The notes: generated by a model from the letters alone, not told the origin. 64,000 nt of DNA from a virus (IMGVR_UViG_3300021431_000076:96001-160000), one strand, 5' to 3'. Positions 7,601 through 33,646 are shown, numbered from the stretch's first letter. Made by a program: numbers and translations.

Positions 7601-9211
7601 ATGGCTTTTCCTAATGATTTATACGTCGCCAGTACTTATTCTGGTAATTTGTATAAATATGTTGATGATGAACTAGTTGGTTCAGCAACAGTTGGTCTTG
7701 GTAATAATAAACCTCAAGCTGTTTTTGTTGCTCAAGATCAAAGATCTGTATATGTTGCTAATAGAGAAAACAATACTGTTAGCTATATTTATGATGGTAT
7801 TAATGAAGGATATATTTCTGTAGGTAAACAACCATTTTCTATTTGTGAAGATGGTTTTGGTGCAATCTATGTAAGCTGCTATGCTGATTCTACAGTATAT
7901 AAAATTGAAAAGACAGCATCTGATCCAACTACAATTACTGCTATTATCCATGTAGATTCTGGTCCAACTGGTATTTGCTGCGATAGTGATAATACAGTTT
8001 GGGTATCTTGCTCTAATAAAGGTACTGTAAATAAGATTGTTAATAACCAGGTTGTTCTTAAGATTCCTTGTGCTGATGCTACAGTAGATAATACTGTATG
8101 TCGTCCAATGGGTATCTGTTGTGATAGACTTGATAACATTTATGTTGCTTGCTATGGTACAAGTGCTGTTATCAAGATTAGAAAATCTGTAAAGATTCAG
8201 ACTTTAACTTGTGGCTCAACTCCATTTGATGTAATTACAGATTCTAATAACAATGTTTATGTATGTTCTTATCTAGAAGATACAATTTCACGTTTCTCAA
8301 TTGCTGATATTAACCATCCAACTGTTATTCAGCTTCCTGAAGGTACTGGTGCTACAGCTCTTGCTATTAATAAAAATGATGAGCTATATGTTATTGGTTC
8401 TCTTTCTAATCAGATTATTAAGATTAAAAACTCTGAAATTGTAATGACCAAGACTTCACCAACCATTACTCCTGCTGGTTTTGGTGATCCTACTGGTTGC
8501 AAAGCATATAATGTATACAACAGAGGAAATGAATCTGGGTCTACTCTAACTCCAGCAGCATCTGCAATTCAGCTCATGTCTGCTATGAAATTAGTATGCA
8601 AAGTAGATGAAGTTCAAGAAACAACTGCTATGTCTACATTCTTACTGTCAAGCGATATGATTAAGCTGTTAAGTTTTGACCATTTGAAACTTAATGGTGA
8701 AACTTGTGATAAACTTGCTGCAACAAATCAAGTTAAAGCAACCCTTCCAAATGTTCCTCTTATTGATGAACTTAAATTAGTTGGTTACTTTGATTCTGCC
8801 GAAACAGAATATGCTGAATTTACTCCAATATCATATAGTGGTGAAAATCCAACTTTCAAAATGGTAGTCGGCTCTATGTCTGGTGATACAATTACTGGAT
8901 TCTCATTTACTCCAGCATCTGATCCAAATGCTATTGCTAATGTAAATGATCAGATTAATACAATAATTGTAGAAACTCAAGCTGATGGCAATCTTTGTGT
9001 TCTAATTCCAACTCGTGTTGCTAATGAAGTGGAAAAAGGTTTAGTTGTTAATGGTATGCAGATTTATAAAGATTGGGAAGTAACCGATCCTGGTGAGCTT
9101 GCAGGTATTAATGCAGCAATTTCAACTGCTTATCCAAACTATAAACCATTTGTAAATCCATATCCTGCATATGCTGGTACTTCAGTAATCCTAAACCGTT
9201 ACAAACTTTAA
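7601..9211 (+). CDS. Beta-propeller (NHL/YncE-like) protein
   Basis: About seven blades of the form P-x-[GS]-I-x-x-D-x-x-x-x-[IV][YW]V; late motif GACA-N6-TAA at 7548-7560. Confidence 0.8.
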   Translation: MAFPNDLYVASTYSGNLYKYVDDELVGSATVGLGNNKPQAVFVAQDQRSVYVANRENNTVSYIYDGINEGYISVGKQPFSICEDGFGAIYVSCYADSTVYKIEKTASDPTTITAIIHVDSGPTGICCDSDNTVWVSCSNKGTVNKIVNNQVVLKIPCADATVDNTVCRPMGICCDRLDNIYVACYGTSAVIKIRKSVKIQTLTCGSTPFDVITDSNNNVYVCSYLEDTISRFSIADINHPTVIQLPEGTGATALAINKNDELYVIGSLSNQIIKIKNSEIVMTKTSPTITPAGFGDPTGCKAYNVYNRGNESGSTLTPAASAIQLMSAMKLVCKVDEVQETTAMSTFLLSSDMIKLLSFDHLKLNGETCDKLAATNQVKATLPNVPLIDELKLVGYFDSAETEYAEFTPISYSGENPTFKMVVGSMSGDTITGFSFTPASDPNAIANVNDQINTIIVETQADGNLCVLIPTRVANEVEKGLVVNGMQIYKDWEVTDPGELAGINAAISTAYPNYKPFVNPYPAYAGTSVILNRYKL

Positions 9212-9229
9212 TATAATAGATCATATAAT

Positions 9230-9257
9230 CCAGGAAAGATCATATGATCTTTCCTGG
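9230..9257. terminator. 28-bp perfect palindrome, terminator-like
   Basis: CCAGGAAAGATCATATGATCTTTCCTGG. Confidence 0.6.
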
Positions 9258-9282
9258 TTCTTTATGTTAAGAGGTGAGAATA

Positions 9283-10353
9283 ATGTCAGCAAATAGAGGG
9301 TATAAAGTCCCTATGACAGTTGTTACTCAAGATAGTAGAGATAAATATCCTGTAGTAAACACTAATGATGTTGCTGGTGGCCTTCATTCAGTTGATACTA
9401 TAAATGATATGCTTATGATTCCATACCTTAGAAGAAAACTAGGTATGAGATGTTATGTAACTAGTTTAAGCAAAGAATATAAACTTATTTCTCATACTAG
9501 TGCAGATATTACTATTATATCTGATTGGGAAGAAATAGAAAAAGGGGTATCCCAATCAGAACTGGCTAATTATGCTCCTAAGACAGAATTAGATACATTA
9601 AAGGGTCAGGTGAATTCATTGCCTGATATGAGTCAATTTGCCACTCAGACTGAAGTACAATCAGTTCAATCTCAGATTCCTGATATGAGTCAGTATGTAA
9701 AGAAATCTGAAATATCTGTTCCAGGAACTGGTGGTGGTACTCCAACTCTTCCAGATTTTACTCAATTTGCTACTAAGACTGAGGTGCAATCAGTTCAATC
9801 TCAGATTCCTGATATGAGTCAATATGTAAAGAAATCTGAAATATCTGTTCCTTCTTCAGGTAGTGGTACTCCAACTCTTCCAGATTTTACTCAGTTTGCT
9901 ACTAAGAATGATGTACAGTCAGTAGATAATAAGACTGTTACAAATAAGAATAATCTAGCTAATCATATTATTTACACACAAGATGAATTGGACAAGCTTC
10001 AATGGCAACAAAAAGAGTTTACAGTAGAACAATCTGAAGTTCCAAAAGAAGTTACTATAGATATTAAGAATGCAAATTCTGCTTATAAATATCCTCCAGT
10101 AGAAGTATTAAAATATGATAAACTTGAAACTGCTATTACGGAAACAGTAACACTTGCTGACTTCGTAGCAAGTGAAGCAAGTCAATACGAGACTAATGAT
10201 AAAGTTACATTTGATGGTAGTTTGCATATATCTCCAGATGTTGCTATTAATATGAGTACCCCTGTCTTATTCAATTCTGGAATATATGTATCTGTAAGCG
10301 ATCCTATATCTTATGATAGAATTCAAAATGCTGCATCTATCACTATCGAATAA
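9283..10353 (+). CDS. Fibre-like protein with shared N-terminal domain and 43-aa repeats
   Basis: N-domain GYxVP...YPV..xDVAGG.H.V...IPxLRRKxGMxCYV is shared with 15779 and 16445; SD AGAGGTGA favours ATG 9283. Confidence 0.7.
   Translation: MSANRGYKVPMTVVTQDSRDKYPVVNTNDVAGGLHSVDTINDMLMIPYLRRKLGMRCYVTSLSKEYKLISHTSADITIISDWEEIEKGVSQSELANYAPKTELDTLKGQVNSLPDMSQFATQTEVQSVQSQIPDMSQYVKKSEISVPGTGGGTPTLPDFTQFATKTEVQSVQSQIPDMSQYVKKSEISVPSSGSGTPTLPDFTQFATKNDVQSVDNKTVTNKNNLANHIIYTQDELDKLQWQQKEFTVEQSEVPKEVTIDIKNANSAYKYPPVEVLKYDKLETAITETVTLADFVASEASQYETNDKVTFDGSLHISPDVAINMSTPVLFNSGIYVSVSDPISYDRIQNAASITIE
9622..9906 (+). repeat. Imperfect in-frame tandem repeat, period about 129 bp, about 2.2 copies
   Basis: QFATxTEVQSVQSQIPDMSQYVKKSEISVP...TPTLPDFT is repeated. 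Confidence 0.85.
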
Positions 10354-10365
10354 GAGGTGATATGA

Positions 10366-12192
10366 ATGGCATCTTATGTTACCGATTCAAGAACTATAGC
10401 ATTTTATAAGTTTAATAATGCAAATACTCCGTTTTATAATTCTATATCTGGAACTGCAAATTTATTAGAACCAATAAAAAACAATTATAATTCTTCTAGT
10501 ACAAATACACCAAATTATGGTGTAATATCTCAAGAACGATACAGATCTAGAAAATCATCATATAAATTAACTCATAACGAATCTACTTCCAAATATACAG
10601 GGTTGCAATTCAATTGTTATAATTATTCATTCTATAAAAACAGCCTTAAATTTGATCAATCTGGATCAGCAACAAATTATGTTGTTACAAAAAATGAGTG
10701 GACTGTAGATTTTTGGTTATATCCTAATATATTAAATATACAACCTACAGATGATTATTATTGCCCATTTTTAAGAATATTTAGTTCAGAGTCTGATTCG
10801 GCAATAAGGAATACTTTACATAATTATTTAAAATCTCTTAAAGCTGTAGATAAATATCTGTTTAGGATAAATCAAATTCATATGTTTGCTACAAATAAAA
10901 ATATAGAAAATGCAAATACTGAATTTTATTTAAATTTTAAAGCTGTTACGTACAAAACTGTTTATAACAGTACTCAAACACAAATTGAAGTAAGTAATAG
11001 TAATAATCCATATATTAGAGATTATATAGTAGGTTTACCAATAAATAAAAATGCATGGAATCATATAGCCCTTATAAATTCAATTGAAAAAGGAATAATA
11101 ATAGCTATTAATGGTCAAATAATAAAACTTATTGAAAATTTTGACAGTAATAGAGATTATTGTTTTATGAACAATGATGATGATTATAGAATATATATAG
11201 GGAGTACTCCTTATAAATCTTTAGGAACTACAAATCAAAATAATGTCGTTGGACGTCCATCTGAAGCAATGTCATTAAATATATATAAAAATGCTGATAT
11301 TTATAAAACGGGAGTAAATGCATCTCATACACAATACCAAATATTACCAGCTAATGTAGTTCAATCTTATACTAATAATTCTTATATTGATGATTTAAGA
11401 TTCTCTCAAGCAGCTTTATGGACAGAGAACTTTATACCTCCTGGATTGATCGGCAAACAGATATTCATCTATGATGAATATGCGTATTATACTGATCCAA
11501 ATACTGGTCTTGCAACTAAACTATCATTTGCTAAATGGAATGATATATCTGATTCAGATAAATTAATTTTATTAGATAGAGTAGCATATAATTATCTGCC
11601 AGATGTAAATCAAATCAAACTTATTCAAACAGATCCAACTAAAGATATAGTATGTTTAAATTACCAACTAGATACAGTAAAACCAACGATAAATATAGAT
11701 AAAATAAATCAATCCAGATCAGAAATAGTATATCCGACTCAGTTCATGAACTATAGTACTATTCAAAATTACTTAGTGAATATAACAGCAACTGGGTCTA
11801 CTAATAATACATCTATTATACGTTTAGGAGTTACTAGAGATGGTATAATTTATTATACCTATAATGCCACTAATGCTTCATGGGTTCCATTAGATAATAG
11901 AGAAGATGTTATTACAAATGGTATATTGATAAACTCTCTACAATATATTCCTAAATCTGCTTGGATACAATTTGATTTATCTAAATTTGCATTTGCTATT
12001 GCATTAACAAGAACAAACGATTCAGATCCTTGTAAGATTGATGATATAAAATTAAAAGTTAATCTAGAAGAAAAGTGGGTTAAAGCTAACAAAGAGAATC
12101 AAGTTAAATATAAATATGTAGGTCCTACTATGTTGAAAATAACTTTCCTAGAAGATGGAAATTATAAAGTAACTTATAATGATAGGGGGTGA
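10366..12192 (+). CDS. LamG/ConA-like lectin domain protein, paralogue 1
   Basis: EWTVDFW...WNHIAL...YIDDLRFS motifs; conserved C-terminus LKITFLEDGNYKVTY. Confidence 0.75.
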   Translation: MASYVTDSRTIAFYKFNNANTPFYNSISGTANLLEPIKNNYNSSSTNTPNYGVISQERYRSRKSSYKLTHNESTSKYTGLQFNCYNYSFYKNSLKFDQSGSATNYVVTKNEWTVDFWLYPNILNIQPTDDYYCPFLRIFSSESDSAIRNTLHNYLKSLKAVDKYLFRINQIHMFATNKNIENANTEFYLNFKAVTYKTVYNSTQTQIEVSNSNNPYIRDYIVGLPINKNAWNHIALINSIEKGIIIAINGQIIKLIENFDSNRDYCFMNNDDDYRIYIGSTPYKSLGTTNQNNVVGRPSEAMSLNIYKNADIYKTGVNASHTQYQILPANVVQSYTNNSYIDDLRFSQAALWTENFIPPGLIGKQIFIYDEYAYYTDPNTGLATKLSFAKWNDISDSDKLILLDRVAYNYLPDVNQIKLIQTDPTKDIVCLNYQLDTVKPTINIDKINQSRSEIVYPTQFMNYSTIQNYLVNITATGSTNNTSIIRLGVTRDGIIYYTYNATNASWVPLDNREDVITNGILINSLQYIPKSAWIQFDLSKFAFAIALTRTNDSDPCKIDDIKLKVNLEEKWVKANKENQVKYKYVGPTMLKITFLEDGNYKVTYNDRG

Positions 12193-12199
12193 AATAGGT

Positions 12200-13939
12200 A
12201 TGGATTATAAAATGGAAAATCTTTCTTCTTCTATAAGAAGATCTATATATAATTTTGAATCTAGTTGGAGTTTAAATGATATTCCTCCATTAGGAGAATT
12301 ATCAAATTATAATATAGGTCTTACTGTAAATGACAAGAATAAAATATCACTTACATCTTCCAATGTAAAATTTGGCACTTGTTGTCTTAAATTAAATTCA
12401 GGAGCTTGTGTATACAGTGATGGTATATTCAAAGATACTCAAGACAATATAAACTTTGCTAATAGAGAATTCACTATAGACTTTTGGGTTTATTGCGAAA
12501 AATCCTATGCTCAATTTGATCCTAGTACAGATTTATCTAAATCTAATATCTTTACAGAGAAATGCACTAATCCATATCTATTTGTATATGGTATGAAAGA
12601 CCCTATCTTTAGTTATCTTAAAGAAGATAAGAATGGATATAGATATATCCCACAAGTATTTGCTTTAGGATATAATTCTGTTACAGAGAAAGCATATATA
12701 TTAGTATTTAGGTCTAAAGTATATCAGCTTCAATCAGGACAAACTGTACCAGAGAATTCTACAAAATTCACTGTGAATGGTGGAGAATATTATGTAGATG
12801 GTGTACAAAATATATTTACAAATGAACATGACCCATATCAAATTTATGAATGCAATATGTCAGCTTATCAATGGCATCATATCACTTTCTCTTATAGTAA
12901 ATCTAATGGTGCTGGTATTTATATAGATTATGGAAATCCAGTAAATTCTAAAGGATTCAGTGTTTCTTGGGCTTCTACTTTCAATTATCCTCCTGATGAA
13001 CAAGGACCGTCTATTGCATTTGGTAATTATGGTAAATCTTATTTTAGAGGACAAGATGCATTCTTCTCTATAGGAAATCATTCTGTACCATATGCTCAAG
13101 ATTGGTTAGAATGGGAAAGATCAAATTCTGCTTTATATAAAAACTATGGGGTTATTCATATAGATCAACTTAGGGTTACTGATAGTAGTTTATCTATAGT
13201 TCCAGAAAAGAGAATAGCAGTAGTAAATAATGATGCATACGGAATGGTGAATGGAAATCTTATACAACTAGCAACTAATTGGAGTACTTTGTCTTCTGAT
13301 CAAAGATTGAGTTGCTATCAAATAGTAGACACTGAATCTCAATTTGATGCAGATGATTTGAAAGATTTAGTATTAGATAATACATATGAACTTAGAATAG
13401 AATCATATACTCCAGAATATACCAATACCAAAACTGTTTTGAGAACAGATTCAGATCATAGAGCTGTAGTAGAACCTAAAAAATTATGGGATATAGGAGT
13501 ATTTGGAGAAATTGAACAAATGACTGTAGATTTCAATATAGAGAATAATGGTAAAATAATGGTTGCTCCTACTAATGATTTAGTTAACGGAGTATACTTT
13601 GGATATGATTTCTCTTTATATCAATGGAAACCTATAGCAGCATCAGAAATAGAAACTAAAGGTATACAAGCAAATCAATTAGGAGCTATTCCTAAAATTT
13701 CTTGGAGTACATTAGGAAAGAATTTGGCATTTGGATATTATATAGAAGCTGAAGAAGAAGGAGTAGATGTAGCTGAATTAAATTCTATAGATGCAGTATG
13801 TACTATAGATACTATACAAGAAGAAGCTAGTTTTGTAACTGATGTAGAATACTCTTATTTATCTTTTGATAAACTACTAGTCAAATTTTTAAATAAAGGA
13901 AATTATAAAGTAACCTATTATGATAAGGAGGGGATCTAA
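12200..13939 (+). CDS. LamG/ConA-like lectin domain protein, paralogue 2
   Basis: EFTIDFW...WHHITF...IDQLRV motifs; C-terminus LLVKFLNKGNYKVTY; SD favours ATG 12200. Confidence 0.75.
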   Translation: MDYKMENLSSSIRRSIYNFESSWSLNDIPPLGELSNYNIGLTVNDKNKISLTSSNVKFGTCCLKLNSGACVYSDGIFKDTQDNINFANREFTIDFWVYCEKSYAQFDPSTDLSKSNIFTEKCTNPYLFVYGMKDPIFSYLKEDKNGYRYIPQVFALGYNSVTEKAYILVFRSKVYQLQSGQTVPENSTKFTVNGGEYYVDGVQNIFTNEHDPYQIYECNMSAYQWHHITFSYSKSNGAGIYIDYGNPVNSKGFSVSWASTFNYPPDEQGPSIAFGNYGKSYFRGQDAFFSIGNHSVPYAQDWLEWERSNSALYKNYGVIHIDQLRVTDSSLSIVPEKRIAVVNNDAYGMVNGNLIQLATNWSTLSSDQRLSCYQIVDTESQFDADDLKDLVLDNTYELRIESYTPEYTNTKTVLRTDSDHRAVVEPKKLWDIGVFGEIEQMTVDFNIENNGKIMVAPTNDLVNGVYFGYDFSLYQWKPIAASEIETKGIQANQLGAIPKISWSTLGKNLAFGYYIEAEEEGVDVAELNSIDAVCTIDTIQEEASFVTDVEYSYLSFDKLLVKFLNKGNYKVTYYDKEGI

Positions 13940-15763
13940 ATGTCTGGCATCAATCCAACAGAGTCTACCCTCTCTTTACTTAAATTCAATGATAAAAACC
14001 AATGGGGAAGAGAATCCATATCGAATTCTCCATTTGTATGGGAAAATTTAGCAATTAAAGATGGAGGTTATTATGGTAATATTTATGATCTAACTGTAGA
14101 TCATATAGGAGATTCTTTTACTGATGTTTCTGGTGGTCTTGGTTCAAAATATATTTCTAGAACCAAAGGTAAAGTATTAAAAGAATATTCATGCATATAT
14201 GCTAAATTACCTGATACATCATATGCTTCAATGACTGTAGAATTCTGGGTATATCTAGGATTTAATCCAACTAATACCACAGAAAAAGGAACTCTTCTAA
14301 ATTATAACTATTTTATGACTGATTATTATCCAACAGGAGCTGGATTGTTTGAACTGAATGTTCATAATGCAATAAATGGAAGAAGAGTATTCAATGCTGG
14401 TGGAAATAATTCTATATATTCTGTAAATGAATATCACTGGATGACATATAATACTTCTACTTATAAACAATGGGCATGGCCATTATTAGTATATCTAGCA
14501 TATTCTGCTGTTACTAAGAAATTTATGTACAGAGTTCCTAATAATATAGAAGTTGTAGAAACTAGTGGTGGTACAAAAGGCGGTAAATTAGTTCAAAGCT
14601 ATAAACACTATGAAACACTTGGTGTATACCCTCCTAATCATTGGTATCATATTGCTATTACTATGACAAGCTCTAGTGTATGCTTATTTATAAATGGTAA
14701 GAAAGCTGGAACTGGATTATCTATTTCAAATTCATCTTCTGGATCTACTTCTGGTACAACATATCAGAATAGATTACAATTTATGCAAACATCAGATTAT
14801 CATTTCTCTATAGGAAATAGAATGACTCCATCATACACATTATCCAGAGATGAGCAGATAGCATTCAATAATACTTTATCAAAGAATTATGCACCTTTTA
14901 GATTTTGGAATTGGAATGGTGGTACTGATCCAAATGTATTTGATCCACAGTATGATCAGACATACTATATTGATGATGTTAGAATATCTAATGGTGTTAT
15001 ATATACTGGAAACTTTAGACCACCAGGATTCCCAGGAATTCAATTATTAAATAACAATGATAAGATATATGCATATGATGATTCAACTTATTCATTTACT
15101 TTAATAACAGATAAATGGTCTACTAGGACAGATGCTGAAAAGAAAGCAATAGTAGATAGTATAGCTTTTATAGATTTAAACTTGGAAGATATTCAATCTG
15201 TTACTAATATAGGAGATAATCCAACTATAGAAGTATATAGGGATAGCAATGAACAAGTTACTTGTGAAATGCCAGTAAATGTATATGAAACTACTGTGGA
15301 ACCAAGTACTCTTATTCCTCTATATTCAAAAGAAAAAGATATCAATAAAATAGAGTTTGAACACTCCTTATCAGAAAAATCATATATAAAGGTATTGATT
15401 ACCGATTCAATAATTTCAGGTGCACAAGAATATAAGACGTATAATTTCACTACAAACGATTGGGAAACATGTGATATAGCTGATATATCTACAAATGGAA
15501 TTGATATAGATTCTGTTAAAGATATTCCGTCTTCTAAACTTATGGAACTTGGTTATGATATAGGATTTGCGTACTTCTTGCATTTAGAACCATATAAATC
15601 TGATTGTGAGATAAATAAGATTAATGTTAATCTTACTATGTCGAATGCATGGAAACATTGTAATCAGCTTAAAGCAAACTATGAATATACCATGTTTAAT
15701 AGACTTAGAGTCGTTTTCTATGAAGATGGTAAATATAAAGTGAATTATATGGACAAACCATAA
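13940..15763 (+). CDS. LamG/ConA-like lectin domain protein, paralogue 3
   Basis: MTVEFW...WYHIAI...YIDDVRIS motifs; C-terminus LRVVFYEDGKYKVNY. Confidence 0.75.
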   Translation: MSGINPTESTLSLLKFNDKNQWGRESISNSPFVWENLAIKDGGYYGNIYDLTVDHIGDSFTDVSGGLGSKYISRTKGKVLKEYSCIYAKLPDTSYASMTVEFWVYLGFNPTNTTEKGTLLNYNYFMTDYYPTGAGLFELNVHNAINGRRVFNAGGNNSIYSVNEYHWMTYNTSTYKQWAWPLLVYLAYSAVTKKFMYRVPNNIEVVETSGGTKGGKLVQSYKHYETLGVYPPNHWYHIAITMTSSSVCLFINGKKAGTGLSISNSSSGSTSGTTYQNRLQFMQTSDYHFSIGNRMTPSYTLSRDEQIAFNNTLSKNYAPFRFWNWNGGTDPNVFDPQYDQTYYIDDVRISNGVIYTGNFRPPGFPGIQLLNNNDKIYAYDDSTYSFTLITDKWSTRTDAEKKAIVDSIAFIDLNLEDIQSVTNIGDNPTIEVYRDSNEQVTCEMPVNVYETTVEPSTLIPLYSKEKDINKIEFEHSLSEKSYIKVLITDSIISGAQEYKTYNFTTNDWETCDIADISTNGIDIDSVKDIPSSKLMELGYDIGFAYFLHLEPYKSDCEINKINVNLTMSNAWKHCNQLKANYEYTMFNRLRVVFYEDGKYKVNYMDKP

Positions 15764-15778
15764 GAGAGGAGGAATAAC

Positions 15779-16354
15779 ATGGCATCTGAAATTAAGAAAG
15801 GATATAGAATACCTGCACCATTAACTACATTAAATTCTTCTCAAGAATATCCTGTAGCTGATATGGAAGATATTGCAGGAGGTTATCATATCGTAAAAAA
15901 TACAAACGAAATGTTTAATATTCCTCGCTTACATAGAAGAGTAGGAATGGTTTGTTATATACGAGATGAAGACCAAGAGTATAGATTAATAATCAATGCT
16001 AGTACAGATAAGACTACAGCTATAAACTGGATAAAGATTACAACTCCTGGAGGATCTGGAAGTGGAGGCTCAGTAGACTTATCTAATTATGTAACCAGAA
16101 CTCTATTTGATCCAGTTAAAGCCAAAGTAGATGATTTACCAGATATGGCTACAATGGCTACTAAAGCGGATGTACAGATAGCAAAGAATGGTGTAGTAAA
16201 ATATATAGATAATAAGACAGCTAATATGGCTACAATGGCAGATATACCAGATATTTCTCCATTCTTAACCCAGCCTCAAATAGAAGAACTTATCGACGAA
16301 TCAGATGATGATGATGACGTTACTCAAAGTGAAATAGATGCTCTATTTAATTAA
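15779..16354 (+). CDS. Short fibre-like protein with the shared N-terminal domain
   Basis: Same N-domain as 9283 and 16445; DLSNYVT motif; acidic tail. Confidence 0.7.
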   Translation: MASEIKKGYRIPAPLTTLNSSQEYPVADMEDIAGGYHIVKNTNEMFNIPRLHRRVGMVCYIRDEDQEYRLIINASTDKTTAINWIKITTPGGSGSGGSVDLSNYVTRTLFDPVKAKVDDLPDMATMATKADVQIAKNGVVKYIDNKTANMATMADIPDISPFLTQPQIEELIDESDDDDDVTQSEIDALFN

Positions 16355-24366: not shown

Positions 24367-27300
24367 ATGGCAGTAGGCCAAGTATATTCCACCCCAGAAG
24401 CGGGATGGAAACAAGTAAATTGTAACCTAAATCCTAATTTATATACTTATGTAAATATGAATTATGGTGGAGATGGTAATGCTGCTAGTGGTGGTTTATA
24501 TTATCCTGCCCCTAGTGGAATGAATAAACTCAATTATCAGACTCCTCATAATCATGCTTACATGTTTTGTAACTTCACTGGTACTAAAATTAGAATTATT
24601 GGTTACTCAACAAATACCAGCTCAACTCCAGAAATTGCATCTATCTATATTGATGGTGATTATTCTGGTAAATGGTATGTACCATCTGATAGATCTGCTG
24701 GTAATATTTACAAATTCTGTGGATATGAAAACACAAATCTAACTGATAAAGAGCATACCTTACTTATCGTTGTAGAACCAGAATCTGGTAGATGGCGTTT
24801 CGATTGTCTTCACATTGATGAAAATGCTTCAGTTATCAAAGTTGATTCTTTATTTGAATTTAATAAAAATCAATTCAGAGCTTTCACTGGTGTGGATGAT
24901 AAAGAAACTAAGAAGATTAAAGATGATACTATTATCACTGCTAAATATCTTGAAATCAATCCAACTAGATTTGGCGTATTCTCAGATATCAGAATTTCTA
25001 ATTCTCCAGTAGATAATGATGTTAGATCTGGTGAAGGTATTAATCTAGAAACTAAGCCTTACTTTGATTTCTATATAACTCCAGAAGATCCTGATGTATA
25101 TGAGCTTAAAGGTACTAATGTAGTATTTAAGACCACTAGAGATCTTAAAGAAACAGATGGAGTTACAGAAACTATTGATCCTTCTAATTATCAAGAAGTA
25201 ATTGATATAGATTACACTAATAAGAAACTCTCAGTAGTTCCTAAGAATGTAATCTTAAAATCTAAACAATTGATTCCAGTAGATAATACTTTCTCTGGTG
25301 TTAAATGCACATTTAGTCATAGCGATATGAGTGCTAAGTTCTTAGTATCATTAGATAATGAAAACTTCTTCACTTATGATGCTGGTACTACTTCATGGGT
25401 AGCTGCTTCTATTGATGAGATTGATGAAAAAGGTATTAGTGACTTCTATACAATTCCATATGCAAATATGCAGTCATTCTTTACTGAACCTGCAGTTGGT
25501 ATAGCAATGAAGTTATATGTAGAAGATCCTGAAGATATTGCATTCTATAATAAAGCAGATAGAAAATTCTCTGGTTTTAAATTCACTACAGGAGATCCTG
25601 CTCTCTGTAAAGTAGAATCTTGTGTAAGAGATGTAAACTTCTATGTTAATAATATAGGAGGATCTTATAATGGAAATGAGAAATCTCTTATCTGTGATAC
25701 TGTTTTAAGTAAAGGTATCAATTGGACTAAGGCTAATGACTTAAATAGATCTTACTCTGAATATAGTGCTTCTGACTTTATTACCAATATTGGTTATGAT
25801 ATGTCCTATTCAGATTATGATGTTCAAACAGCTCTTAGATTGCTTACTACTGAAGATTATAATACTTATGTATTAGATCCAGCAAATGAAGCTAAACTCA
25901 ATCCATCAAAAGATGTAGCTACTTGGGTAGATAATGGAGCTAATCTAACTAATAATGAAGATTTTAATGCTCTCGGTGATTCTACTCTTACTATCACTCA
26001 TGCTACTGCAGATAAGGATACAGTATATAATAATATTGGTATTCGTCCTCAGCTATTCTTCAATACTAGATCTAAAGTATATCATAGATTTGATTCTGAA
26101 ACCTATCTACCAGTAGTAAGAAAGGTTAAAGATCTTGAACCTGGTAAAGCAATTGCTTGCTCTTATACTGCTACTACTTCTGGTGTAGCTGCAGGAGCTG
26201 GAGGATTTGCTATTGGTAAAAACGGTAAACAACTATTACCAGATTATGGTCTAGCTACTCCTGATGGATATTTCTATTTCATTTGCGTAGGTTATGCTCC
26301 TTCTGGTGCATTGAAATGTATTGCAGATAGAGTTATTCAAACCAATGTTTCTTGGGAAGCATTAAACGATAAAGGTTATTGTGTAACCTCTGGTGTATCT
26401 CTTAAATTTGGTTCTGCTAAGAATTGCTTACTGAGACTTCCAAACACTGTATCTGAAAATACATCTGGCTGGAATAATCTTGGAGAATGGGATGCTTGCA
26501 TTTCTTATTATGGTCAGCATGGTATTAATCCATCTTCTAATGCAGTATGGAATGCAGCTTCAAGATATTCTTGGACTCTTGTAACTCCACAATCTAATAT
26601 GGCTAATCGTATTGTTCGTGGTTATCAAGATGAATCAAATGTTTCTGATACATATGCTCAAAATGCTACTATGGCAGAAACATTTGGTGGTGGTACTGAT
26701 AAAGTATCTACTTATGTTGGTGCTGATGTTGGTTTCCGTCCAGTTATTGAAATTCAGACTTATGTAGATGAATCTCAGGTTACTACATATCCTGAATGCT
26801 ATCTTGATATTGCTCCTTCTCTTGGTGCTTGTAAACCTGGTCAAGCTGTAGTATGTGAATATAGACAAGATACTGCTAACGTTGCTGGTGCTGCTAATGC
26901 ATTCAACTTCAATCCAGAATCTGCCAAAGATCCTATTCCTGATCCTGCTCCAGATACACCAAATGGTAAATTCTATTTCGTATGTGTAGGATATGCTCCT
27001 TCTGGTGCTAAGAAATTTGTTGCTGATAGAAATATTCAGGCAAATGTATCTTGGGAAGATCTTAATGATAAAGGATACTGTGTAACTTCTGGTGTAGATG
27101 TATCTGAACAGACTGGATTTGAAAAATCTCTTATGAGATTAATGGTATCTGATGTTACTAACTATAATATGCGTCTTGAATCTTCTGAGTGGGATGCTAT
27201 TATAATGAGAGAGAACATTGGTAACACTGATGTATCTGCTGCTGGATGCAATTATTGGAATATGAAGAAAACCTTAAGCTGGATGCTCAATACACCACAT

Positions 27301-28005
27301 GATGTAAATGCTTCTGGTAATATGGGTACTATGTCTCAACGTGTAGTTAGAGGTAAAGAAACTATTGACTATGGTGATGAAGCCAATTTCATTTCAGAAT
27401 CTACTACTAGATCTTCTTCTATTGGTTTCCGTCCAGTATTAGAAGTCCGTATCGAAGGTAAGACGGCATATAACAATTGCAAGATTGATACTACTAGAGT
27501 ATCAGAAAAGAACAAAGAAAATATGTTCATTGGTATTGATGGCTCTTATGAATTCTTTGATGAAAATCAGAGTGCTGCTAATGCATCTATAAAGATGATT
27601 ATCAATAGTGATGTAGAAAATACAGACTTTGCTCCTGTAATGTCTGATGAGGATAAGACTTATCATTATGACTTACCTATTACTAAATTAGATTATGGTG
27701 ATAATACCATTAGAATAGTCCTTTCAACATTCGAAAGAAGAACTAATAATAACGGTGAAGAAGTTCTTGATAATGTGGTTGATAATGAGTTCGAATATAT
27801 TATTCACAAAGAATATATTACAGAACCTGAATGCAAGACTAAGATGAGAGAACTTGAAAATTACACTGCTGGTTTTGATATGGGTAATGGTTTAACCGTT
27901 GAGAATAAACTGGTTGTCAATAATGGTAAAGTTAAGACTGATGAATCACCAAAAGAAATCAGAATTCCTGCCAATACTATCAAGATTACATTTAGTGCTG
28001 AATAA
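24367..28005 (+). CDS. Large multidomain adhesin-like protein
   Basis: N-terminal beta-sandwich plus three copies of a domain with [IV]ADR.IQ.NVSW..LN...GFRPV. Confidence 0.7.
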   Translation: MAVGQVYSTPEAGWKQVNCNLNPNLYTYVNMNYGGDGNAASGGLYYPAPSGMNKLNYQTPHNHAYMFCNFTGTKIRIIGYSTNTSSTPEIASIYIDGDYSGKWYVPSDRSAGNIYKFCGYENTNLTDKEHTLLIVVEPESGRWRFDCLHIDENASVIKVDSLFEFNKNQFRAFTGVDDKETKKIKDDTIITAKYLEINPTRFGVFSDIRISNSPVDNDVRSGEGINLETKPYFDFYITPEDPDVYELKGTNVVFKTTRDLKETDGVTETIDPSNYQEVIDIDYTNKKLSVVPKNVILKSKQLIPVDNTFSGVKCTFSHSDMSAKFLVSLDNENFFTYDAGTTSWVAASIDEIDEKGISDFYTIPYANMQSFFTEPAVGIAMKLYVEDPEDIAFYNKADRKFSGFKFTTGDPALCKVESCVRDVNFYVNNIGGSYNGNEKSLICDTVLSKGINWTKANDLNRSYSEYSASDFITNIGYDMSYSDYDVQTALRLLTTEDYNTYVLDPANEAKLNPSKDVATWVDNGANLTNNEDFNALGDSTLTITHATADKDTVYNNIGIRPQLFFNTRSKVYHRFDSETYLPVVRKVKDLEPGKAIACSYTATTSGVAAGAGGFAIGKNGKQLLPDYGLATPDGYFYFICVGYAPSGALKCIADRVIQTNVSWEALNDKGYCVTSGVSLKFGSAKNCLLRLPNTVSENTSGWNNLGEWDACISYYGQHGINPSSNAVWNAASRYSWTLVTPQSNMANRIVRGYQDESNVSDTYAQNATMAETFGGGTDKVSTYVGADVGFRPVIEIQTYVDESQVTTYPECYLDIAPSLGACKPGQAVVCEYRQDTANVAGAANAFNFNPESAKDPIPDPAPDTPNGKFYFVCVGYAPSGAKKFVADRNIQANVSWEDLNDKGYCVTSGVDVSEQTGFEKSLMRLMVSDVTNYNMRLESSEWDAIIMRENIGNTDVSAAGCNYWNMKKTLSWMLNTPHDVNASGNMGTMSQRVVRGKETIDYGDEANFISESTTRSSSIGFRPVLEVRIEGKTAYNNCKIDTTRVSEKNKENMFIGIDGSYEFFDENQSAANASIKMIINSDVENTDFAPVMSDEDKTYHYDLPITKLDYGDNTIRIVLSTFERRTNNNGEEVLDNVVDNEFEYIIHKEYITEPECKTKMRELENYTAGFDMGNGLTVENKLVVNNGKVKTDESPKEIRIPANTIKITFSAE

Positions 28006-28019
28006 GGAGAGTGATTAAA

Positions 28020-29783
28020 ATGAGTAGATATTGTGCATTTAAAACTTCTGGTCAGTACTATGTGTTTAATAATGATAAAACGGCTCTTGTTCCTATAACA
28101 TTTAATCCTAAAGATCCCATTTATACTAAATGGATGAATCCAGAAGATTTAAATAATCTTACTGAAGAGCAATGTGCTAAGTTATCTGGTTATTTCTTAG
28201 AGTTATATTCTGATATAGAAGATGATGTATATACAGTAACTATGGAGAACTTCGATATTCTTCAAACTACAGATACATCACACTTTGTACTTAGTGGTTT
28301 TGCTGGTATTTCTTCAATGAAATTTAATGATACTTCTACCACTTGTCATGTTATATTGAGCTTTGATGGTAGAAAGACTTGGTACTATTATGATTTTACA
28401 GCAAAAGAATGGAAGAAAACAGTCCTAACAAAACTCTATAGTTCTGATTCTAATACAGTGGCTCAGATTCCTAATCTAACAGAAGCTATCTTTGAAAAGA
28501 TATTTACAAAACATTGTACTTTAGATTATGCTGTATCTATAACGAATGCAGAGCATGTAGGAAGTGTTACTTTAAATCTTCCAGGAAATCAAGCTCCTAA
28601 AATTTTATCTCTTACAGTAGAACAAAATCAGACAACACATACCAAACTAATAAAAGTTGTGGCAGTTGTTGAAGACTTTGAAGGAGATACAATTAATTAT
28701 GATATTAAACGTATCTTCAAAGGATTAAATGATGATCAGACTATTTACAAAGAAGGATATAACAAAATTCCTCCAATCAAATCTGGTACATGTAATCCTG
28801 CTACTAATACTTATGAGTATTATATAGATCCAGCGAATATTGAAATTGGATATAGTGAACTTGTATTTACTTATACCGATGAAAAGGGTCTATCTGATTC
28901 AAAGACTGTTAAAATAATAAAGACAAACAAAAAAGCATACATTGCTATGGTAATTAATAGAAATCATCTTTCATATACTATAGAAGACGAAGATTCAGAC
29001 TTTGGTAAATATAGAATTGTTATGAATGATACTATTATCACTCCAGGTCATCAGCAAACTCCACTTATTCAAGGTGATACAACAACTGGTTGGACTCAAC
29101 TAGTGCCTGTTCCAGTAAATAATTCATTTGATATTCCGTTAAATCTTGTTAAATTTGGCGATCCAACAAATGAGATTACTATTGAATTCCAAGAAGAATT
29201 CTATGATGCGCCAAAGATATCTTTGTCTAAAAAGTTTATGGGATATTATTATGGAATTCTCTTCATTGATCCCTCTCAACCATATGAATTAACTCAAGAT
29301 GTTACTATTACAAATACATTTGTAAATGAACTAGGAAATACTGTAACTGAAACTACTACAGTTAAACAACCAAACCCAGACTATTATTATTCTACATCTC
29401 TTGGAGATATACTGAAGAAGCTCAATCTAGGTTCTATTACTCATACTAGAAACTCTAATACTTTTGAAGTTGGTATAGTAAACCTTAGCGAAGACATTAT
29501 TTCACAAGTTGTTATTAATGGATTCACTAATGCTGCTAACAACTATAAAGTTTGTGTATCACTTACAGAAACATTTAGTAATAATCTAGATAATATGACT
29601 ATTCGCTTTAATGATGTATATCCATTTGATCCTAATAGCGCAGATCCTAAGTTTGGTGTACATACGTTCTACGTTAAACTATTCTCATTGGATACTACCA
29701 ATTGGGATATAGATGACTTTATTACTTTAGAAGCGGATTCTGCAGGTAAATATGAACCTGACACCCAAACTATTGGAAGCTAA
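28020..29783 (+). CDS. Structural protein with cadherin/Ig-like segment
   Basis: NQAPKI...VEDFEGDTINY and IEDEDSD motifs; SFDGRKTWY motif is related to the LamG paralogues. Confidence 0.6.
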   Translation: MSRYCAFKTSGQYYVFNNDKTALVPITFNPKDPIYTKWMNPEDLNNLTEEQCAKLSGYFLELYSDIEDDVYTVTMENFDILQTTDTSHFVLSGFAGISSMKFNDTSTTCHVILSFDGRKTWYYYDFTAKEWKKTVLTKLYSSDSNTVAQIPNLTEAIFEKIFTKHCTLDYAVSITNAEHVGSVTLNLPGNQAPKILSLTVEQNQTTHTKLIKVVAVVEDFEGDTINYDIKRIFKGLNDDQTIYKEGYNKIPPIKSGTCNPATNTYEYYIDPANIEIGYSELVFTYTDEKGLSDSKTVKIIKTNKKAYIAMVINRNHLSYTIEDEDSDFGKYRIVMNDTIITPGHQQTPLIQGDTTTGWTQLVPVPVNNSFDIPLNLVKFGDPTNEITIEFQEEFYDAPKISLSKKFMGYYYGILFIDPSQPYELTQDVTITNTFVNELGNTVTETTTVKQPNPDYYYSTSLGDILKKLNLGSITHTRNSNTFEVGIVNLSEDIISQVVINGFTNAANNYKVCVSLTETFSNNLDNMTIRFNDVYPFDPNSADPKFGVHTFYVKLFSLDTTNWDIDDFITLEADSAGKYEPDTQTIGS

Positions 29784-29816: not shown

Positions 29817-31781
29817 ATGGCAGATTATACAAATAGACTTAACGTCATTGCTAATATAATCGACCCAATAACTAGAACTATTTATGTATATCCTGTTAAG
29901 GATGCTTATCTTTCTGAAGAAGAAGCAGTATTTCCTCATGGTATACAGAAAATGTTATTGGTAAATAATTCTACTGTTGGAAGAGCTAATAAAACCATTA
30001 TGGCTTTTGATATTCCACAAATAAAAGATATTCAATATGAGAATCTTGTTTCGGTAGAATTGATTTTGCAAACAATAGTTGTTCCAAGAAGAGATGTAAA
30101 TATCGGATTCAAATATCATGAAGATAACGGATGGGTTGAAGACGGTACTACTTACTTAGGTCAACCTCAAGATGAACCAGAATTTGTCCAAATGAAAACT
30201 CTAGGTTCACTTGATAGAAATCTAGTATATGATATTACTGATATCTTTACTTCTCATGAGAATAAAGAATTCCATTTCCCAATTACTATAATGGAAGAGG
30301 AATCTAACGTATCAGGAGCTCCAGTAATATTTAACTCTAGAGAAGCAGGACCAAAACTGTCTCCAGTAGTTAAAATTTCTTATTACTATTTTCCTGAGAT
30401 AATAGATGCTGCTAAATTAGACAGTAGTCTTACTATCAGAAGAAATGTTCCTAATGATACTGAACCATATCCTTATCTTCCTGGTCAGCTTGAAATCTGG
30501 GGAGGAACATATAAAACACAGTTAGATGGTGAATTGACAATAAAAGCTATTCCTGTACCAGATCCTAATGCAGATCCTCCAGTAGAAGCTCCAGAACTTC
30601 CTGGTACTATTAATGTAAAAAGAAGTTATTATAACTTCTTAGACGGTCAGTTGACAATTCGTCAGAATAAACAAAAGGAACTAGATGGTAGAATAGATGT
30701 GAATTTCTATATTACTAGACCTGGTGCTCCTAATATAGATGATCCTCCTGCTAAATTACCATCTGATGGTAGATGGGTACAACCAATACCAATTCCATAT
30801 CTTGAAGGTTCTGTAGAAGTAAAAATCTTCCCTGTTCCTGATCCTACTGCTGATCCTCCAGTAGAAGCACCATTTATTGAAGGTCAGTTAAATATTAAAG
30901 ATCTAAAAGATCTAGATGGACAATTAACTATACCTAAATACCATGCAGATGATGGTGGTCCAGATTATGTAGGACCTGATGGAACTCCACATAAATTTGG
31001 TCCTTCTTCTCCTCTTAATGGTCAAATCAATATCAAAGTTAAAGATCTAAAAGATCTAGATGGACAATTAACTATACCTAAATACCATGCAGATGATGGT
31101 GGTCCAGATTATGTAGGACCTGATGGAACTCCACATAAATTTGGTCCTTCTTCTCCTCTTAATGGTCAAATCAATATCAAAGTTAAAGATCTAAAAGATC
31201 TAGATGGACAATTAACTATACCTAAATACCATGCAGATCTTAATCCAGATCCTGCTGAGCCTATTAATCCTAGTGCTATAGATGGCACTCCAGATGCACA
31301 TGATAAATATGTTCATTATTCTAAATTAGATGGTGCAATTACCATAAAACGGCATGTTCCTAGCGACACTCCTATTAGTGGTGAAGAAATTCCTGATTTA
31401 GATGGTGAAGTATTCATTAAAATACATAAAGCTATTATCAATGGAGTTCCTGGACCAATTTTAGATGGCGCAATTAATATTAATAGAACTTATGAAATAT
31501 ATCATCCTGCTGATGATTTAGAAGGTCAACTTAATATTAGAGAAACTGCTGCTTTAGATTCTCAATTATCTATAAACTTCTATACTGAATCTACTGATCT
31601 TGATGGTCAATTAAATATTCCTGATAGTGTAGATCTAGAAGGTAGTTTAGTAGTTAAACAAAATAAAAATGCTAATCTAAATGCTAAATTTAAAATCAAT
31701 GGTCGTGGATTTAAAGATATGATAGGTTCTCTCAATATAGATGATTCTTCTAGTGGTTCTTATGCATTCATTATAGACTAA
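29817..31781 (+). CDS. DNRLRE-like domain protein with many LxGxLxI strand repeats
   Basis: PVKDAYL...FDI...FNSREA..P pattern, then about 20 L[DE]G[QE][LI]xI motifs separated by Pro-rich spacers. Confidence 0.65.
   Translation: MADYTNRLNVIANIIDPITRTIYVYPVKDAYLSEEEAVFPHGIQKMLLVNNSTVGRANKTIMAFDIPQIKDIQYENLVSVELILQTIVVPRRDVNIGFKYHEDNGWVEDGTTYLGQPQDEPEFVQMKTLGSLDRNLVYDITDIFTSHENKEFHFPITIMEEESNVSGAPVIFNSREAGPKLSPVVKISYYYFPEIIDAAKLDSSLTIRRNVPNDTEPYPYLPGQLEIWGGTYKTQLDGELTIKAIPVPDPNADPPVEAPELPGTINVKRSYYNFLDGQLTIRQNKQKELDGRIDVNFYITRPGAPNIDDPPAKLPSDGRWVQPIPIPYLEGSVEVKIFPVPDPTADPPVEAPFIEGQLNIKDLKDLDGQLTIPKYHADDGGPDYVGPDGTPHKFGPSSPLNGQINIKVKDLKDLDGQLTIPKYHADDGGPDYVGPDGTPHKFGPSSPLNGQINIKVKDLKDLDGQLTIPKYHADLNPDPAEPINPSAIDGTPDAHDKYVHYSKLDGAITIKRHVPSDTPISGEEIPDLDGEVFIKIHKAIINGVPGPILDGAININRTYEIYHPADDLEGQLNIRETAALDSQLSINFYTESTDLDGQLNIPDSVDLEGSLVVKQNKNANLNAKFKINGRGFKDMIGSLNIDDSSSGSYAFIID
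30895..31238 (+). repeat. Perfect 144-bp in-frame tandem repeat, about 2.4 copies
   Basis: Units start at 30895, 31039 and 31183; the 48-aa unit KDLKDLDGQLTIPKYHAD...NGQINIKV is identical at DNA level. Confidence 0.95.
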
Positions 31782-31792: not shown

Positions 31793-31821
31793 CAATCCTA
31801 GGGATTGATTCCCTAGGATTG
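31793..31821 (+). terminator. Intrinsic terminator
   Basis: 12-bp stem followed by TTTTT. Confidence 0.85.
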
Positions 31822-31830
31822 TTTTTCTTA

Positions 31831-31843
31831 GACATGTGTGTAA
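31831..31843 (+). promoter_or_regulatory. Late-type promoter GACA-N6-TAA
   Basis: Directly after the terminator, upstream of 31899. Confidence 0.7.
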
Positions 31844-31898
31844 AGAGAGGTTTCTCTTTATGCATAAATAGAAACAAAATATAAGGAGGTTTCGTAAT

Positions 31899-32378
31899 AT
31901 GGCTGCTCCGTCTATTACAGTTGTTAATGCTTCTTCAAATACAACCCAGACTAACTGGTCTGCTGGTGTTGTTAAAGCTAGTCAGAGTTCCAATGTTTTA
32001 ACTATTCAGATTTGGAATAATAGAGGTAATAACTCTACTGCTCTAGCTGATCTTAGAGATGCTTCTATTACATCTCTAGACACTAATGGTGGTAGCACTT
32101 CTGATCCAGTATCAGGTAAATGGCTAAAAGTAAACTGCCCAAATCTTTCTGAACAATCAGGTACTTGGACTGCTGTTGGTGGTACTACTACTAAATTTAT
32201 TCGTGGTGATGGTGTACCAGCATCAGATGGTAATATTATTAGAGGTACTGCTAATCCTGGTTCTTCTAGTAATACAACTAATTATTGCACAGTAAAACTA
32301 AGAATTGATGTTCCTGCAAATGCTACACCTAATACATATAACTTTAAGACCAGAATTAATGGTTACTATGTTGGTTAA
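31899..32378 (+). CDS. Small beta-rich structural subunit, candidate major fibre subunit
   Basis: Own late promoter, SD AAGGAGGT, S/T/N/G-rich composition; paralogue of 32393 and 20678. Confidence 0.7.
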   Translation: MAAPSITVVNASSNTTQTNWSAGVVKASQSSNVLTIQIWNNRGNNSTALADLRDASITSLDTNGGSTSDPVSGKWLKVNCPNLSEQSGTWTAVGGTTTKFIRGDGVPASDGNIIRGTANPGSSSNTTNYCTVKLRIDVPANATPNTYNFKTRINGYYVG

Positions 32379-32392
32379 TGGAGGTGACTTAA

Positions 32393-32863
32393 ATGGGTCC
32401 ATTAATCGGAATTTTTGATGAAACCAACACAGCTGTTCAAGCAACATGGAATGTTGGAATTGTCAGAGCTCAAATTCCATCTGAAGAATTGACTATTAAT
32501 ATTTGGAATAATAAAACTGGTACTGATGATGTGTCTGATCTTAGAGATCCTATGTTAGCAGTATTAGATTCTAATGGTCTAACAGCAAATACTCCAATTC
32601 CACAAGATAAATGGGTACAGGTTAATGTAGAATCAGTTGATGGTAATACAACTACTTGGACTCCTATTGGTGGTACTACTACTAAATTACTAAGAGCTAA
32701 TAGTGGTGTAATTACAGATGTTATTAAAGGTACTATGAACAATGGTGATCCCTTACTATATCCACAAAATGTATGTACTGCTAAATTAAGAATTGTTGCT
32801 CCAATCAATTCTATTCCTGGAGATTTTACATTTAAAATTAGACTTACTGGTTATTATACCTAA
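32393..32863 (+). CDS. Small beta-rich structural subunit, paralogue
   Basis: Aligns end to end with 31899 (IWNN, DLRD, KW..VN, GGTTTK, FK.R..GYY). Confidence 0.75.
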   Translation: MGPLIGIFDETNTAVQATWNVGIVRAQIPSEELTINIWNNKTGTDDVSDLRDPMLAVLDSNGLTANTPIPQDKWVQVNVESVDGNTTTWTPIGGTTTKLLRANSGVITDVIKGTMNNGDPLLYPQNVCTAKLRIVAPINSIPGDFTFKIRLTGYYT

Positions 32864-32866
32864 TAC

Positions 32867-32895
32867 AATCCTCTACCCATAACGGGTAGAGGATT
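32867..32895 (+). terminator. Intrinsic terminator
   Basis: 12-bp perfect stem ending in a T-run. Confidence 0.85.
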
Positions 32896-32953
32896 TTTAA
32901 TTATTGTGCAAACTTTTATATAATCGTTAATTATTTATAGGGGGTAATTTAAT

Positions 32954-33646
32954 ATGTTAGAAGTTTGTCATTCTCCATTAGAAGCAGAGGGTCAGAATTA
33001 TATTTGGTTTGCTATTACTAAAGATGGTAAAAGTATTTATGAATATAATGATAACTGGGAAAAGAAGGATTTTACTACAGATGTATATGAACCAAGATAT
33101 TTTATGAATACTTTGGGTCTTATGGGAAAAGGTTCTCTTTATACTATGGATTTAGATATATTAGATAAAGATGATATAGAATCTAATATGTTTGCTCATC
33201 ATGTTATGCATGGAGATAAAACAAGTTTGATTTTACCTAAAATATTTTTAGCTCATTCTACTTATCCAGTAGAAGTTTATTCTTTATCTACTCCTAATAT
33301 GGTAATCTCTAGTCCTAAAGATGATATCTTTGTAAGAAAATATGTCCATTGTGATTTGAAAGTAGCAAAAAATAAAGAAACATCTGCTAGTGCTATGATA
33401 GACTATTATGCTTTAGGATATTCTAATAAAATAGAAATGAATGGTTCTATTATTAGATATGCCTTGATGTTGTGTGTTCCTAATGATGATGATAGAGACC
33501 CATTTTATAAAATTCAACTTACTTCAACAAAAGATATCACTGTAGATTTATATGCTACGCCACATATATTCTGTATAACAGATCCTCATAAGACTATTGA
33601 ACTTAAAGCACATGAGAGAACTGAATTTGACTACCGCTTAGGATAA
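32954..33646 (+). CDS. Hypothetical protein, paralogue of 21426
   Basis: Same motifs as 21426; late motif AACT-N6-TAA at 32911-32923. Confidence 0.65.
   Translation: MLEVCHSPLEAEGQNYIWFAITKDGKSIYEYNDNWEKKDFTTDVYEPRYFMNTLGLMGKGSLYTMDLDILDKDDIESNMFAHHVMHGDKTSLILPKIFLAHSTYPVEVYSLSTPNMVISSPKDDIFVRKYVHCDLKVAKNKETSASAMIDYYALGYSNKIEMNGSIIRYALMLCVPNDDDRDPFYKIQLTSTKDITVDLYATPHIFCITDPHKTIELKAHERTEFDYRLG

Follow-up and report, generated by a model that had tools for sequence, protein, structure and literature searches.

A nearly gapless run of twenty open reading frames (ORFs) at 6475-33646 in a 64,000-nucleotide stretch of viral DNA raises the question of what kind of structure it encodes. The stretch, hereafter the window, comprises bases 96001-160000 of a 332,775-bp virus record (IMGVR_UViG_3300021431_000076). 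All twenty ORFs lie on the plus strand, and opposite-strand replication genes encoding a topoisomerase II, a Dda/RecD-type helicase and a DnaB-type helicase are found on the flanks of the block. An initial annotation, made from the sequence alone, had proposed that 7601-33646 specifies a cytoplasmically assembled filament with swappable lectin tips that is shared between bacteria and jumbo phages. Our analysis makes a related reading moderately probable, namely that the block encodes a host-adhesion apparatus of the virion built on a mobile, uncharacterized cassette of genes.

The cassette is organized around two protein families. Three small immunoglobulin-like (Ig-like) proteins, encoded at 20678..21331 and by two tandem genes at 31899..32863 (159 and 156 aa, starting at 31899 and 32393), gave significant full-length matches to the phrog_11814 profile (E values of 7e-13, 6e-27 and 9e-23, respectively). 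The tandem proteins are 38% identical by blastp (E 6e-34), and the protein called from 20669 is 26% identical to that of 31899 (E 1e-5), in agreement with their earlier description as paralogous subunits. The copy at 20678 is the most divergent and carries insertions. Its start in the initial annotation is better than that of the ORF call, as it restores the M-A-x-P N-terminus of the family, which together with alternating hydrophobic residues is near-invariant in 82 diverse members. A full-library profile search placed the subunit family in 274 representative clusters at 50% identity, nearly all of them stand-alone proteins of 150-200 aa. UniRef names a Clostridium homologue WxL; among the 82 members, no Pfam family, WxL included, matched more than one. 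A sequence search of the PDB with the subunit profile was empty, and the ESM Atlas returned only the family's own unnamed viral clusters.

A partner gene comes after each subunit group, as had been noted, and the two partners are themselves paralogous. Partner A (21426..22046) and the divergent partner B (32954..33646) both gave significant full-length matches to the phrog_11178 profile (E 2e-18 and 2e-7), and they are 22% identical when partner A is taken from its ORF-call start at 21384 (E about 1e-4). Here again the start given in the initial annotation, 21426, is better, since the ESM Atlas sequence begins at the corresponding residue; that database gave only leads below threshold for the partner. 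Both phrog_11814 and phrog_11178 are annotated solely as “unknown function.” GC-rich hairpins at 31782-31898 and 32864-32953 bracket the tandem subunit genes as a unit of their own, with strong Shine-Dalgarno sequences on both, so that the partner gene at 32954 would be transcribed apart from the subunit pair; another hairpin parts 20678 from partner 21426. Given these separating hairpins, subunit and partner may be made in differing amounts. Multiple copies of subunits and partner are likely, as terminators set off the tandem subunit genes in a unit with strong ribosome-binding sites.

Four further proteins in the second half of the block complete the conserved set. The first (22063..23358, 431 aa) has a phrog_30895 N-terminal domain, identified by a PHROG match, and a homologue in the stand-alone Paenibacillus cluster described below. 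The second (24367..28005, 1212 aa), also placed by PHROG matches, combines a phrog_10059 N-terminus with internal phrog_30895-like repeats and is 31% identical to a 751-aa protein of the same Paenibacillus cluster; tblastn with this protein gave essentially no matches in phages. The third (28011..29783, 590 aa) is an RCC1-like beta-propeller (phrog_16766, E 1.4e-8) and a likely receptor-binding head. PDB sequence searches with the 24367 and 28011 proteins were empty. The fourth (29817..31781, 654 aa) is a CBM96/DNRLRE repeat protein (Pfam CBM96 E 1.6e-10; NCBIfam DNRLRE_dom E 3e-5). CBM96, the curated name of the DNRLRE domain, is an alginate-binding module first described in alginate lyases (PMC9971899). 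The CBM96 match scored 41.5 bits against a cut-off of 26, covers profile positions 3-162 of 164 and forms the N-terminal module; the NCBIfam DNRLRE_dom match reached 24 bits, under its cut-off of 34. After this module come 17 L-x-G-x-[LIV]-x-[IVL] strand motifs with Pro/Asp-rich linkers between them. The DNRLRE assignment of the initial annotation is thus upheld, and its estimate of about 20 strand repeats becomes a motif count of 17. Within this gene, at 30895-31238, lies a tandem repeat of 2.4 copies of a 144-bp unit, 100% identical to one another.

Physical clustering in other phages points to the role of this gene set. Searches with 31899 (tblastn) uncovered 30-40% identical proteins in 11 phage records, with carriers that include Listeria phage LIS04, Bacillus phages SP-15, G and EZ-2018a, and Brevibacillus phages Jenst, SecTim467 and Sundance. 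In LIS04, phage G and Jenst, a partner orthologue comes after the subunit gene and an RCC1-like homologue after the pair; the bacterial loci show the same placement of the partner, and Paenibacillus that of the RCC1-like protein. Multi-copy versions of the CBM96/DNRLRE protein are present in LIS04 (3567 aa), Jenst (1575 aa) and Paenibacillus (2055 aa). A phrog_11315 protein precedes the subunit gene in many loci, and a phrog_21223 protein is found after the partner in Paenibacillus clusters and in phage G. In LIS04, subunit and partner (LIS04_81 and 82) lie directly after genes for baseplate J, tail protein I and baseplate J, and 3' of the pair are the RCC1-like protein and the 3567-aa protein, of pectin-lyase/DNRLRE type. 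In Jenst, the pair follows the tape-measure and virion structural genes and precedes genes for two RCC1-like proteins and the 1575-aa DNRLRE protein and the lysis genes. In both phages, this is where tail fibers are encoded. In phage G, the cassette runs from gp360 to gp366, far from the main tail module, and gp365, four genes downstream of the subunit homologue, has been reported in virions by mass spectrometry. A second, distant subunit member was observed in phage G near the main tail module (104228-104584, gp173 region; E 1.7e-7), the main cassette lying ~170 kb further along the genome.

The block shares little else with these phages. Protein matches to the tail and structural regions fetched for LIS04, phage G and Jenst were confined to the cassette genes and to three scattered ones lying beyond the block, and a megablast search of 14 kb against phage records gave no match. 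Phage AR9 has no member of the subunit or partner family. The sharing limited to the cassette and the absence of both families from AR9 suggest that the cassette moves between unrelated tails, a transfer that would resemble the behavior of receptor-binding modules. The core also evolves more slowly than the presumed tips: identity to the closest relative is 71-87% for the subunits and partner, 52% for the RCC1-like protein and 41% for the CBM96 protein. Carbohydrate- or receptor-binding domains and distal proteins that diverge fastest, both marks of a tail-fiber module, are therefore present in the block.

The first half of the block carries lectin-like, propeller and Ig-repeat genes. It contains a 536-aa beta-propeller with NHL, SGL and virginiamycin-B-lyase-like repeats (7601..9211; SGL 32.4 bits and NHL 29.3 bits, both above the cut-off; Vgb_lyase E 6e-13), so that, with the RCC1-like protein, two propellers are present where the initial annotation had listed one. 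A domain of 125-170 aa at the N-terminus of a 359-aa fiber-like protein (9274..10353) recurs by blastp in a 191-aa protein that consists of this domain alone (15779..16354; 31%, E 3e-29) and in a 1137-aa protein (16445..19858; 46%, E 2e-28), where it is joined to two Ig-like Big_4 domains (E 1.7e-18, two stretches) that account for the Ig-repeat protein of the initial annotation. A PDB sequence search with the 16445 protein was empty. One N-terminal domain in three different proteins would, by analogy, be that of fibers docking at a single site. Between the first two of these genes stand three tandem LamG-like paralogues of 608, 586 and 607 aa (10366..15763, starting at 10366, 12179 and 13940; Laminin_G_3 E 4e-3, 2e-3 and 6e-7), which have divergent heads and a common C-terminal region of ~270 aa (23-28% similarity, E 7e-9 to 2e-21). 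Neither this region nor the shared N-terminal domain was on the earlier list of paralogies. A fourth LamG-like protein (23521..24327, 268 aa; Laminin_G_3 E 2.6e-11) lies among the cassette genes and has PHROG matches that include “baseplate wedge subunit” families. The four LamG-like proteins of the initial annotation are thus confirmed, two of the four matches being below the Pfam cut-off; no family named IADR turned up for the IADR-domain protein it had also listed. Within the 9274 gene, a 129-bp tandem repeat (9633-9923, 2.3 copies, 89% matches) is a second recent in-frame expansion beside the perfect 144-bp one. The last gene before the subunits, at 19962..20654, is placed by position only: its 230-aa product matched no Pfam, PHROG or NCBIfam family and gave no phage tblastn match. 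By positional analogy, it may fill the slot before the subunit gene that is occupied elsewhere by a phrog_11315-type protein. When the subunit family was compared by profile with the proteins of 28011, 24367 and 19962, no relation emerged.

The position of the cassette in LIS04 and Jenst, the sugar-binding domains, the docking domain, the divergence pattern and the exchange between phages all fit a virion host-adhesion apparatus. Such an apparatus would have two layers. The conserved, horizontally mobile core would be made up of the subunit, the partner, the phrog_30895 and phrog_10059 proteins, the RCC1-like protein and the CBM96/DNRLRE protein; around it would stand lineage-specific lectin-like fibers, which are the trio with the shared docking domain, the LamG trio and the NHL-type propeller. 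Subunits and partner could act as a structural connector or scaffold, and the fast-diverging propeller, LamG and CBM96 proteins would supply glycan binding and set the host range. The probable attachment site of the fibers and accessory proteins is the baseplate or tail tip, and their targets would probably be polysaccharides in the cell wall of a Gram-positive host. All parts would be assembled in the cytoplasm, as any virion part is. We found no hydrophobic N-terminus on any protein of 7601-33646, and the statement that the block proteins lack signal peptides is thus correct from 7601 onward, but this is normal for any virion protein and is no pointer to a special cytoplasmic filament.

Receptor-binding modules of Gram-positive phages have structural examples in the baseplates of TP901-1, A511 and phi812. 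The block resembles tail-fiber modules of this kind in several respects: cassette genes placed after baseplate genes (in LIS04 and Jenst), carbohydrate-binding domains, shared docking domains, fast-evolving distal proteins and modular exchange between unrelated phages. It differs from them in that no cassette protein matches a solved tail-fiber or baseplate protein by sequence or fold search, the core families are of “unknown function,” and the cassette also occurs in bacteria without a tail. Several observations weigh against a virion adhesion apparatus. Pfam profiles for the tail sheath, baseplate J and the T4 gp19 tube had no match in the 333-kb genome, and with no sheath, tube or baseplate J gene located, attachment to the baseplate of the window phage is something that we can only infer. 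In the accessible literature, no proteomic data on the subunit or partner were found for any phage. Foldseek and VIA searches with the subunit and partner models brought up no solved protein of a tail fiber or baseplate. Finally, in at least four Paenibacillus species the cassette is intact with no tail-shaft or capsid gene identified within ~20 kb upstream or ~4-5 kb downstream, and hence it may work without a tail.

These bacterial copies carry evidence on both sides. The same gene set is present in Paenibacillus, Clostridium and Bacillus pumilus genomes; the cluster of Clostridium and Paenibacillus chromosomes to which the initial annotation had likened the block is real. Named members of the subunit family come from Paenibacillus species and Clostridium tagluense, and the family was detected in 37 of the 93 species-representative genomes of the genus of Paenibacillus amylolyticus. 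Loci were fetched from six Paenibacillus-group genomes and B. pumilus. The bacterial copies fall into two kinds, phage-tail elements and stand-alone clusters. In the first kind, which favors a virion adhesion apparatus, the cassette sits in a tail module with either tube and tape-measure neighbors or, in a second type, Dit-like, PAAR and amidase genes around it. The P. amylolyticus element at ~160-206 kb parallels Jenst one gene at a time (34-87% identity) over a stretch that begins with the tail tube, includes the tape measure and ends with the lysin. The 80 kb fetched around it (150-230 kb) had no match to the Jenst terminase, the terminase-to-capsid genes or the capsid-related gene, and the gap where the Jenst head genes would sit is ~900 bp. 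This element may encode a headless tail-like particle (a tailocin-type element). A related element in other species (L040-L045) has a tape-measure homologue of just 286 aa.

The second kind is a cluster that, in five Paenibacillus species (G078, G013, G070, G011 and G001), is flanked by the same set of housekeeping genes; four of the five carry it intact. On one side are genes for DegV, a polysaccharide deacetylase and an ABC transporter and on the other genes for MtnA-family and APH proteins. Across species, the flanks are 78-98% identical versus 35-82% for the cluster genes. The score class of the stand-alone clusters takes in about 18 of the 93 species genomes, which likely carry this form. 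Intact clusters have 11-12 genes, in the order of a 722-886-aa protein, two ~250-aa proteins, the subunit, the partner, and phrog_21223, phrog_30895 and phrog_10059 proteins, followed by discoidin “tail proteins,” the RCC1-like protein and the CBM96 protein. The leading protein shows homology, across 84-97% of its length, to proteins from Clostridium phage c-st, Enterocloster, Thomasclavelia and SPbeta-like phages, some of them annotated “RNA-dependent RNA polymerase,” and on this homology it is assigned as a YonO-type RNA polymerase. YonO is a single-subunit RNA polymerase that transcribes the SPbeta late genes (PMC5467207). The stand-alone cluster is like the late region of SPbeta in that a YonO-type gene comes before phage late-type structural genes, but differs from it in that no capsid, tail-shaft, lysis or integration genes are seen beside it: none of the capsid, tube, sheath, tape-measure, lysis or integrase type was identified within ~20 kb upstream or 4-5 kb downstream. 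In the P. amylolyticus cluster, signal peptides are lacking from all nine cassette proteins and from the protein of the downstream flank. The YonO-type gene is cut there to 396 aa (L017:18712-19902) and the next two genes are missing, which argues that the cluster is partly decayed in this species.

One could then propose that the cassette encodes an autonomous, tail-independent adhesive complex, a free-standing particle that phages plug onto their tails and that Paenibacillus has domesticated under its own polymerase. Such a particle could be set free when cells lyse or be assembled inside the mother cell, or could be a spare fiber set for resident tail-like elements. The synteny between conserved flanks in five species with its faster-changing cluster genes, the share of genomes in the stand-alone score class, the polymerase homologue heading the intact clusters and the lack of signal peptides all speak for this proposal. 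Yet every gene of the stand-alone cluster belongs to a phage protein family, some labeled tail protein, and sheath and tube genes exist in the same genomes, hundreds of kilobases away. The stand-alone clusters could equally be spare fiber sets for resident tail-like particles or long-lived prophage remnants, and the truncation or deletion of the polymerase gene and its two neighbors in one species also counts against the proposal. It moreover tells little about the phage itself, and we regard it as unlikely. We find it similarly improbable that the cassette is a self-contained adhesive appendage in which multi-copy Ig-like subunits, organized by the partner and the CBM96 protein, carry exchangeable lectin heads, and which would have been bolted onto the tails of unrelated phages and domesticated in Paenibacillus under the YonO-type polymerase for a cell or spore function.

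The predicted structures bear on a further proposal, close to that of the initial annotation, in which the subunits join head to tail by strand exchange into a pilus-like polymer with lectin tips, aided by the partner or by the strand motifs of the CBM96 protein. The AlphaFold2 model of 31899 (82-sequence alignment, pLDDT 96.3) is a single seven-strand Ig-like sandwich. Its best Foldseek matches in the PDB are donor-strand pilins (FimA, FimG, CfaB and PapA) and the TasA fiber, and the system is like chaperone-usher pili (Fim, Pap, CFA/I) and TasA fibers in its Ig-like subunit, the order of subunit and then partner genes and the conserved N-terminal strand, seen in the near-invariant N-terminus of the 82 members. 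The duplicated subunit genes in their own strongly translated unit, and the 17 repeated strand motifs available on the CBM96 protein, would also suit a polymer. The structural matches are, however, weak and generic, with TM 0.34-0.47 (0.47 to FimA) and a root-mean-square deviation above 5 Å. In the exhaustive VIA search, PapD/MSP-like proteins, glycosidase Ig domains, a WxL-interacting protein and pilins (Z ~6) were tied at Z of 7.5 or less, a level that VIA itself states to be background. The sandwich is complete, with the N-terminal strand packed in place, in a monomer model of a kind that is unable to reveal strand exchange. Against predicted viral structures, the model matched the SP-15 orthologue (TM 0.93) and phage G gp173 (TM 0.73), and Foldseek found a fold like it, at TM ~0.5, as a domain within phage G gp366 and the SP-15 RCC1-type proteins.

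The partner does not favor a pilus either. Its AlphaFold2 model (partner A, 19 sequences, pLDDT 85.6) is one beta-supersandwich, with VIA matches at Z 8-9.8 to the N-terminal domains of glycoside hydrolases, to galactose mutarotases and to the periplasmic domain of YidC, and a two-domain PapD-like chaperone was absent among the structural matches listed for it. Unlike chaperone-usher systems, whose partner is not a single supersandwich, the block has no signal peptides, and no usher family was among the Pfam matches of the twenty proteins. The Bacillus jumbo phages 0305phi8-36, AR9/PBS1 and BpSp have polymeric helical or curly fibers whose genes are partly assigned, and phage G has an outer coil. 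A pilus-like polymer could supply such extra high-copy tail appendages of Bacillota jumbo phages, and phage G carries the cassette. However, AR9 has helical fibers but neither family, and SP-15, which has them, shows by electron microscopy only an indistinct baseplate with short, 10-nm spikes. That the subunit family makes up the AR9/PBS1 helical fibers lacks support and is rejected, since AR9 has no homologue. To connect the cassette with the outer coil of phage G is pure speculation, SP-15 carrying the family without such a coil. We therefore hold the pilus-like polymer to be unlikely. From the initial proposal, what stands is a recurring unit, found in both phages and bacteria, whose lectin-like members diverge fastest; the filament is not supported, the subunit being modeled as a complete sandwich with generic matches and the partner as one supersandwich.

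That the propeller, supersandwich and CBM96 proteins are instead soluble lyases or hydrolases acting on host envelope polymers, as the virginiamycin-B-lyase and lactonase-type propeller matches of 7601, the resemblance of the partner model to glycoside hydrolase and mutarotase N-terminal domains and the origin of CBM96 in alginate lyases might suggest, is very improbable, since the matched domains are the non-catalytic ones, no catalytic domain above the curated threshold (Pfam, NCBIfam) was found in any block protein, and the tail-module position and shared docking domains point to structural roles.

The expression of the block is less clear-cut than the initial annotation had it. Hairpin terminators after eight stop codons, including those of the 7601..9211 and 15779..16354 genes, split the block into about eight transcription units. 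Late-type promoters had been described as driving it, a claim that our search did not sustain: the strict AR9 late-promoter consensus AACA-N6-T[A/G] (PMC5312081) occurs in only one of nine intergenic gaps (at 6449, upstream of 6475) and is not enriched upstream of the units. The late promoters of the window phage may differ from those of AR9. Several gaps within 6377-33646 carry TATAAAT- or TTTATG-like strings after hairpins. The likeness to YonO-driven transcription belongs to the bacterial relatives of the cassette, whereas phages related to that of the window use multisubunit polymerases.

Two small genes called as ORFs at 6475..7554 (116 and 237 aa), ahead of the 7601-33646 range first considered, open the block. 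The 237-aa protein (6841-7554) has a strongly hydrophobic, membrane-type helix near its N-terminus (residue 14); a membrane protein heading a structural block was unexpected. In a related 284-kb phage (L022), both genes are conserved in this order and again precede that of the propeller.

A phage receptor-binding module is a known kind of system, and it is the core proteins and the tail-less, polymerase-headed bacterial form that are new. We found no description of the subunit and partner families or of the Paenibacillus cluster in the literature, and for DNRLRE/CBM96, only carbohydrate-enzyme work and unrelated uses were found. The core cassette proteins are unstudied, with no Pfam family and no solved structure. 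If the block does encode a virion host-adhesion apparatus, then the cassette is a widespread host-recognition module of Bacillota phages, ranging over jumbo phages, SP-15/LIS04-type myoviruses, phage G, Jenst-type phages and tail-like bacterial elements. The cassette also provides candidate genes for unassigned tail appendages such as the outer coil of phage G. A knowledge of the architecture of the cassette would help to predict which Gram-positive hosts a phage or tail-like particle can attack and to re-target that range, and the stand-alone Paenibacillus clusters would offer a clear example of a phage adhesion module retained by bacteria together with its own transcription enzyme.

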